This document shows positions 11,940 to 12,450 of a stretch of 64,000 nucleotides of DNA, piece after piece. The notes below the pieces were generated by a model, which saw nothing but the letters and a program-made list of their open reading frames with translations, did no database searches and had not been told where the DNA came from. The position numbers and the translations under genes were made by a program. Position 1 is the stretch's first letter. Each line of letters starts with the position of its first letter. This DNA is from Eledone cirrhosa (Eukaryota): assembly GCA_964016885.1 (NCBI GenBank), contig OZ024741.1:334180001-334244000 (forward strand), given 5' to 3'.

Positions 11940-12102
11940 ATTAAATGATATTAAATAAATGGAAACTATATTTATAAAACCATATTTATTTCGTTATATA
12001 TATTTCAGGGATATCATATTAACAATATGTTATGCCTTCTTCAGACAAAATACAATATAAACAGTCTTATAAATAAATAGATACGACATACCTTTCAATC
12101 AC
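11940..12102 (-). mobile_element. PLE 3'-terminal fragment, homologous to 59050-59210
   Basis: Shares GAAATAAATATGGTTTTATAAATATAGTTTCCATTTATT and the HHR with the PLE end at 59100-59205. Confidence 0.75.
11987..12052 (-). ncRNA. Type I minimal hammerhead ribozyme
   Basis: Minus: UAUUUUGU-CUGAAGA-AGGCAUAACAUAUU..AAUAUGAUAUCCCU-GAAA-UAUAUAUA-ACGAAAUA. Confidence 0.72.
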
Positions 12103-12450
12103 CTCGACCAGAGGGAGTTATTAACAATATATATTTAGAAACACACAGATACATGCGGACACATTAGTGTTTCTAAATATATATTGTTAATAACTCCCTC
12201 TGGTCGAGCAATCTTTGAAGTGTGGGGACAGCTGGAAAGCTTCCATTACTCATACTTCTCGCCTTTTTCACCACCTCTTCTGCGGCCTCGATATAAATAC
12301 CCCCTCCGCCTCCGTGGTATTTTCTTCGGGGTCATAAGAGGCTTAGCTCTGTTTCTCGACCGTTATATCGCGTGACTATCTCCCCCTCCGCCTTTTGGGA
12401 TTCTTTCTCACGTCGTGTAGACGCGTTCTTGAGACTAGTAAAATGAGGTA

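Follow-up and report, generated by a model that had tools for sequence, protein, structure and literature searches.

Penelope-like elements (PLEs) are known to carry inverted, 5'-truncated arms and to have a tail at one end (Craig et al. 2021, PMC8557442; Arkhipova et al. 2013, PMC3846280). In the endonuclease-bearing PLEs described in these two sources, the inverted pLTR is arranged head-to-head with a short inverted 5' arm and a palindrome at the inversion point, the tail is present at one end only, and the target-site duplication (TSD) is hidden by the (TA)n target. PLEs of the Hydra clade have a C-terminal GIY-YIG domain without the CCHH cysteines, a CxCx5C linker, CxxC and CxH motifs, hammerhead ribozymes and (TA)n targets (Craig et al. 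2021, PMC8557442). In vitro, a purified PLE protein was able to nick both strands and extend them, with synthesis beginning at two sites between which the tail lies (PMC11167929).

Non-LTR retrozymes consist of non-coding tandem units with a type I hammerhead in each (Cervera and de la Pena 2020, PMC7229834). PLEs have been proposed as the mobilisers of animal retrozymes on the basis of shared hammerheads, co-occurrence and pLTR homology (PMC7229834; bioRxiv 10.64898/2026.07.22.740005). For L1, the processes described include twin priming with microhomology, template switching of the second cDNA, and nine insertions assembled from two transcripts; insertions of two RNAs in opposite orientation are among those described (PMC11702581).

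The locus described here, found in a window of 64,000 nucleotides (the whole stretch of DNA that was analysed), can be compared with each of these systems. All of the structural features listed above for endonuclease-bearing PLEs recur at the junction; however, the inverted arm described for PLEs in those sources is a copy of the same element, whereas the arm at the junction starts with the 3' end of another family and has no more than its inner 61 nt from the array (PMC8557442, PMC3846280). With L1 twin priming, the junction would share a second cDNA made from the other target end, microhomology at the outer seam and untemplated bases at the inner seam, and with the two-transcript insertions of L1 it would share the use of two RNAs in opposite orientation and the template switch of the second cDNA. 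In contrast to L1, there is no poly(A) and no readable TSD, and the start sites are of the PLE type, behind a hammerhead (PMC11702581). Each ingredient is known (inverted PLE arms, L1 two-RNA insertions); their combination was not found in the literature searched. Nor was a junction between a retrozyme and a PLE found there, and the supplements of the 2026 preprint, which were outside the search, may list some.

Anatomy of the junction

On the top strand, the order of the parts is (TA)n, antisense PLE end, antisense unit fragment, TTA, sense array and (TA)n (Table 1), and no TA lies between the PLE arm and the unit fragment. With position 12167 taken as +1 of the unit, the inverted fragment is identical at 61 of 61 positions to the reverse complement of ten of the twenty complete copies, and 96.7-98.4% identical to that of the other ten. 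The three bases that follow it fit neither continuation of the unit. At the start of the array, the arms of the hairpin (12103-12144 and 12167-12208) are perfect over 42 bp, and the fold has an energy of -67.5 kcal/mol and a z-score of -17.6, with none of 200 shuffles equalling it. Fragment, filler, array start and hairpin had been placed in this way by an earlier sequence-only reading, all of whose coordinates for the junction hold. Compared with both of its parent families, the junction is a true chimera with a 5-nt common word at the seam. Because both flanks are (TA)n, a TSD is unreadable.

Table 1. Features of the junction and related features of the window
Feature	Position	Strand	Basis or remark
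Left (TA)n target tract, TTTA interruptions	11318-11936	.	
PLE arm of the junction: PLE 3' end, ~165 nt, 5'-truncated	11937-12102	-	90% to 59082-59209
Putative type I hammerhead of the PLE arm	11987-12052	-	motif scan
Inverted 61-nt fragment of the 597-bp unit (-19..+42)	12103-12163	-	sequence comparison
Hairpin, 42-bp identical arms and 22-nt loop	12103-12208	.	
TCGAC word common to PLE family and unit at the seam	12104-12108	+	X1 loose ends
3-nt filler TTA at the inversion point	12164-12166	+	
Tandem array, ~20.7 units of 597 bp, retrozyme-like	12167-24551	+	
Type I hammerhead of unit 1	12451-12540	+	U3-A8 core from 12456, cleavage 12535
Right (TA)n tract, ~1.1 kb	24552-25639	.	
Related PLE end (90%) with hammerhead, then 88-nt tail (59210-59297) before (TA)n	59082-59297	+	
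Broken GIY-YIG-type endonuclease remnant	57356-57718	-	in the insertion holding the 59 kb relative
Head-to-head insertion	534-5446		arm identity 99.9%
Head-to-head insertion	27476-32683		arm identity 98.8%
Head-to-head insertion	33254-33795		arm identity 90%
Head-to-head insertion	52650-53768		arm identity about 80%
Head-to-head insertion	60014-61761		arm identity 98.8%

The ribozyme array

The array would appear to behave like a non-LTR retrozyme: it is built of tandem units with a type I hammerhead, it has no coding capacity (no ORF of at least 120 aa was found in it), and the length of its unit, 597 bp, is within the 51-972 bp reported by Li et al. 2026 (bioRxiv 10.64898/2026.07.22.740005). 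Homology to a PLE pLTR, a further trait of retrozymes, was not seen in the unit in the window searched. When the unit was compared with nine PLE-end stretches of the window, on both strands, 17 of the 18 comparisons were in the range of shuffled sequences, and the one above that range was a CA-repeat match. Whereas the link of non-LTR retrozymes to PLEs consists of co-occurrence and pLTR homology (PMC7229834; bioRxiv 10.64898/2026.07.22.740005), that of the array consists of an insertion junction, with no homology to the neighbouring PLE end.

Twenty-one direct anchors of the unit are found at a spacing of 596-599, together with a single inverted anchor at 12103. The mean pairwise identity of the units is 99.6% (14 ungapped units), and the first and last units have private changes. 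Variant columns repeat in blocks of five and four units (units 5-9, 10-14 and 15-18), and much of the length of the array is therefore DNA duplication after insertion. A rolling-circle origin of all 21 units was rejected, since the block duplications of variants indicate later growth at the DNA level.

The hammerhead of the unit passes the motif scan in 18 of the 21 units, and units 8, 13 and 17 have a G>A change beside the cleavage site. Its U3-A8 core is a variant that has been described in PLE hammerheads (PMC4209133). The 3' end of the array lies 75 nt behind the last hammerhead cleavage site, directly on (TA)n. A stretch resembling TA/TG repeats (12736-12763) is found in the unit just ahead of the start of the inverted fragment; it may be a captured remnant of the target that marks the natural monomer boundary.

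The Penelope-like arm

The 3' end of the PLE arm faces outwards, into the left (TA)n tract, and is without the tail that is present in the relative at 59 kb; a 10-nt tandem repeat (11936-11955) lies at this end. The homology to 59050-59210 that the sequence-only reading had reported is confirmed, with 117 of 130 positions identical (90%) between 11947-12075 and 59209-59082 and a weaker likeness on to ~12103 / 59050. The adjoining stretch 12076-12100 is also PLE and not filler, because a contig of public run X5 matches 12046-12100 without difference; a second X5 contig does the same for 11963-12022 (records 23 and 18). Such a match, over 115 nt, has a chance of 0.3% at a divergence of 5%, and of 56-71% at the 0.3-0.5% by which the terminal units of the array diverge. 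Given these exact matches, the arm is young, as is the array.

A type I hammerhead is recognised in the arm by motif scan, with the core CUGAAGA from 12044, GAAA, a long helix II, a short palindromic minimal helix III, an 8-bp helix I and predicted cleavage at 11995. In the minimum-energy fold, helix II forms and the modelled helix I does not (z = -0.83). A search of the whole window with Rfam gave no match at the gathering score; the 23 weak matches in 11930-12800 were all below it, mostly miRNA models on the perfect hairpin, and none was a hammerhead. The ribozyme, which had been described as canonical, would deserve this name only for its conserved core, and is best regarded as putative.

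The arm ends 48-58 nt behind the cleavage site, hereafter the short site, which may be compared with 42-43 nt in two other PLEs and 135 nt in the tailed copy at 59 kb. In public copies of the same family, TA is either reached at 11944-11946 or the tail continues at 11938. Both end sites thus recur, and the family, taking the 59 kb relative and the public copies together, has an optional tail and two 3' end positions.

The arm itself has no coding sequence. It probably derives from a coding PLE family, as judged from the insertion that holds the 59 kb relative, in which the endonuclease remnant shares 42% of its residues, over 124 aa, with the endonuclease of the 28672-30558 PLE. The remnant sits in the opposite arm from the 90% relative, no RT is linked to it, and the linker region is absent. 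At the head-to-head junction of the same 59 kb element, two out-of-order inverted pieces and A-rich filler (56826-57997) form a second complex junction.

The seam in public contigs

Part of the stretch is contained in 20 of 24 public runs (17 organisms). Positions 11936-12763 were compared with four of the 24, three of which (X1, X4 and X5) contain both families. In X1, four contigs (agreement 0.91) part from the window after 12098; they have CATCGAC.. in place of its CACCTCGAC.. / TCACCTCGAC.. The microhomology, TCGAC, is 5 nt long and offset by 2-3 nt against the public variant; microhomology at the outer junction, as expected of twin priming, is present with this offset. At the same position the variants of X4 and X5 read TCAAC/TCTAC, which together with the offset means that the exact parent sequence at the seam is not fixed. 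Among the contig pieces and joints listed for the four runs, none bridges the junction, and no run is known as the source of the window; indeed, no run is clearly its source, because the main unit variant differs from that of the window.

Scans with sequence patterns gave two metagenome matches and one genome match to a 20-nt PLE pattern, which are attributed to chance, there being no likeness past 20-25 nt, and no match to a unit pattern. For organism D, whose raw reads were the fourth run compared, the contigs hold 0.43 of the words, yet these reads give two partial reads in 1.9 Gb; in X5 both families occur at a trace of their depth in X1, and the main unit variant is almost unchanged between the two runs. 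A high-copy repeat may just as well have been carried over as be truly shared, and horizontal transfer is not claimed.

The word GTCGAG occurs five times outside the array, on both strands and with the junction included (12103, 59231 and 60079 among them), two of the occurrences being in PLE tails. In the unit it is found at +37 (the seam) and at +367 (the cleavage site), which may be chance.

Flanks and head-to-head insertions

To the right of the array, (TA)n is followed by an unrelated PLE (25640-27184). This element belongs to another clade, with a cysteine linker, a weak GIY-YIG match in Pfam and a single orientation, and no hammerhead was found in it by motif scan. It was rejected as the partner or continuation of the junction arm, there being no homology between them beyond microsatellite, and the right flank has no likeness beyond microsatellite to what lies upstream of the relative at 59 kb. 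The alternative that an intact PLE was simply interrupted by the array is refuted, as the right flank is (TA)n and an unrelated PLE, and not the remainder of the element.

Five other head-to-head insertions, with their 3' ends outwards into (TA)n, were found in the window by masked self-comparison (Table 1); the insertion at 56.8-59.3 kb, which is broken on the left, was excluded from this count. In each of the five pairs, a single arm is extended, by about 50-134 nt, and its partner stops short; the tailed arm may be either the long or the short one. An inverted arm is not a constant feature, and was absent by the same comparison from at least three PLE pieces (at 7.0, 8.4 and 25.6 kb). The insertion at 534-5446 is a near-perfect palindrome of 4.9 kb formed by a non-coding element; the body of this element is microsatellite, and its end resembles a hammerhead with a very long helix II (~5113-5255). 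A diverged single copy lies at 7025-7240.

Origin of the junction

The reading that we favour, with a probability of roughly 0.55, is that the junction arose in a single insertion of the PLE type, with extension of both target ends, one on array RNA and the other on PLE RNA, after which the two cDNAs were joined via the inverted 61-nt patch. An endonuclease would have opened both strands of the (TA)n tract, whereupon the right target end would have primed reverse transcription of the array (retrozyme) RNA, starting 75 nt behind a hammerhead and yielding a multimeric cDNA that ends at 12167. The left target end would have primed on PLE RNA at the inner, tail-less start, and ~165 nt would have been copied up to TCGAC. 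For the patch, two routes can be envisaged. In the first, the left cDNA would switch at TCGAC to the array RNA, immediately in front of the first polymerase (twin priming with a 42-nt overlap); in the second, the long cDNA would fold back on its next unit, copy 61 nt and pair with TCGAC. Three untemplated bases would fill the remaining gap, and the array would grow afterwards by block duplication at the DNA level. A simple snap-back of the long cDNA at its end was rejected, as the 19-nt spacer would have the opposite polarity, and for this reason the template of the patch would have been the array RNA or else the next unit within that cDNA.

Fold-back or template switching between array RNA and PLE RNA by a PLE reverse transcriptase had already been suggested by the sequence-only reading. 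The chimera with its TCGAC seam and the PLE-type head-to-head anatomy in (TA)n are in keeping with that suggestion, but the direction has to be changed, in that the order of synthesis would run from PLE to unit on the top strand.

Support for co-insertion comes from both 3' ends pointing out into (TA)n, like the five other pairs of the window, and from the arm stopping at the short site, given that one arm stops short in all five pairs. In addition, a shared 5-mer no more than 3 nt from the seam is improbable by chance (~0.4-0.5%, a rough value from base composition), and the arm is both young and directly apposed to the unit fragment. The process also has precedents, as the PLE protein extends both strands and L1 two-RNA insertions exist (PMC11167929, PMC11702581). 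Co-insertion is weakened by the lack of a bridging read or contig among those listed and of a readable TSD or empty site, by the offset of TCGAC and the differing variants of X4 and X5, and by the absence of any resemblance between the unit and the PLE ends of the window. The inner breakpoints likewise count against it, since their 42-nt overlap exceeds the 1-10 bp reported for L1 and lies beyond the ~10 bp of twin priming (PMC11702581); an offset as small as 42 nt has a 14% chance on a 597-nt period.

The foremost rival, which we regard as possible but on the whole unlikely, holds that a young PLE copy or stub was already present at (TA)n and that the array was inserted later, with the remainder of the PLE or the intervening TA being lost. 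Here, the bottom strand would have been nicked in TA and the top strand in or beside the PLE, and the top end, trimmed to TCGAC, would have primed the inverted 61-nt piece by twin priming. Priming by a genomic 3' end via microhomology is the standard route of twin priming (PMC11702581), and the PLE endonuclease prefers AT-rich DNA, its own terminal repeat included (PMC11167929). The PLE family is moreover very abundant, and the prior for a pre-existing stub is raised because the tract at 11.3-34.8 kb is an insertion hotspot, with at least four PLE insertions. On the other hand, a stub requires a deletion that ends inside the PLE without leaving any TA, the orientation would be a matter of luck (1 in 2), the right flank holds no continuation of the element, and the arm shows no difference in 115 nt.

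It is improbable that unit fragment and PLE end had already been fused into one chimeric element or transcript, mobile in that form, and that this left arm then entered together with the array or recombined with it, even though sequence unrelated to the element can be carried in trans by PLE terminal repeats (PMC3846280). In X1, X4 and X5, the loose ends listed at 12092-12098 go on as native PLE and never as unit, no listed joint links PLE and unit, and at 12104-12187 the depth of X5 is close to zero. Self-priming on an antisense template, by which the palindromes at inverted junctions of head-to-head rotifer PLEs have been interpreted (PMC3846280), is a very improbable source of the hairpin, as it leaves the switch to a second family unexplained, and later work in vitro points to target priming on both strands from sense RNA (PMC11167929). 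An artefact of assembly or long-read fold-back is hardly credible: although the junction appears in none of the four runs compared (among the pieces listed), the inversion of 61 nt is no mirror of a read and is bounded by microhomology and filler, and the unit variants form an orderly pattern of blocks.

Mobilisation of ribozyme arrays

Where an array combines ends of the PLE type with an inverted arm of that type, and a PLE end lies in this arm, the result is a footprint by which the mobiliser becomes testable, through junction counts in one genome. The junction hints, without proving it, that Penelope enzymes move ribozyme arrays. It does not bear out the earlier claim that the array is physically linked to its helper family: the unit has no homology to the PLE end at the junction, and in X1, X4 and X5 the depth of this end exceeds that of the unit several-fold (as summed depths, not copy numbers), which makes its family the likeliest bystander under any model. 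The junction would be a one-off variant of the usual mode of PLE insertion, and a single event. Chains of different PLE families are reportedly the subject of the Terminon paper.

The pattern of one tail per pair, seen in five of five pairs, ties the two start sites known in vitro to the two target ends, and a single junction event proves neither. A broader proposal, highly tentative and with the odds against it, is that PLE integration is regularly two-ended (a dimeric enzyme with two RNAs, using an outer tail and an inner start) and that retrozyme RNA shares a complex with Hydra-clade PLE RNA, so that mixed arms recur and name the helper family of each retrozyme. The enzyme may also favour the word GUCGAG, which is present at the seam, at the unit cleavage site and in two of the window's PLE tails.

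Other features of the window

The window is AT-rich animal DNA, rich in (TA)n tracts, LINE remnants and PLEs, and may resemble a cephalopod genome. Four coding remnants of Hydra-like PLEs are found in it (28672-30558, 8428-9429, 57356-57718 and 61145-61432). As read from the ORFs, those at 28672-30558 and 8428-9429 have the CxCx5C linker and the CxxC and CxH motifs and are without CCHH; Hydra-clade traits are thus present in both, and partly so in the remnant beside the 59 kb relative (PMC8557442), and the PLE at 28672-30558 would fit this clade by its motifs. The linkers of both ORFs are rich in asparagine, recalling the N-rich inserts of rotifer PLEs (PMC3846280). Pfam gave no name for any Hydra-like protein of the window, and none of the 328 homologues found has an informative name. 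A 36-bp tandem repeat of 61 copies (43787-45996) is open in several frames, and two LINE-type elements with AP endonuclease, RT and a PHD-like finger (47801-50883 and 54054-56371) are ~67% alike and lie in opposite orientation.
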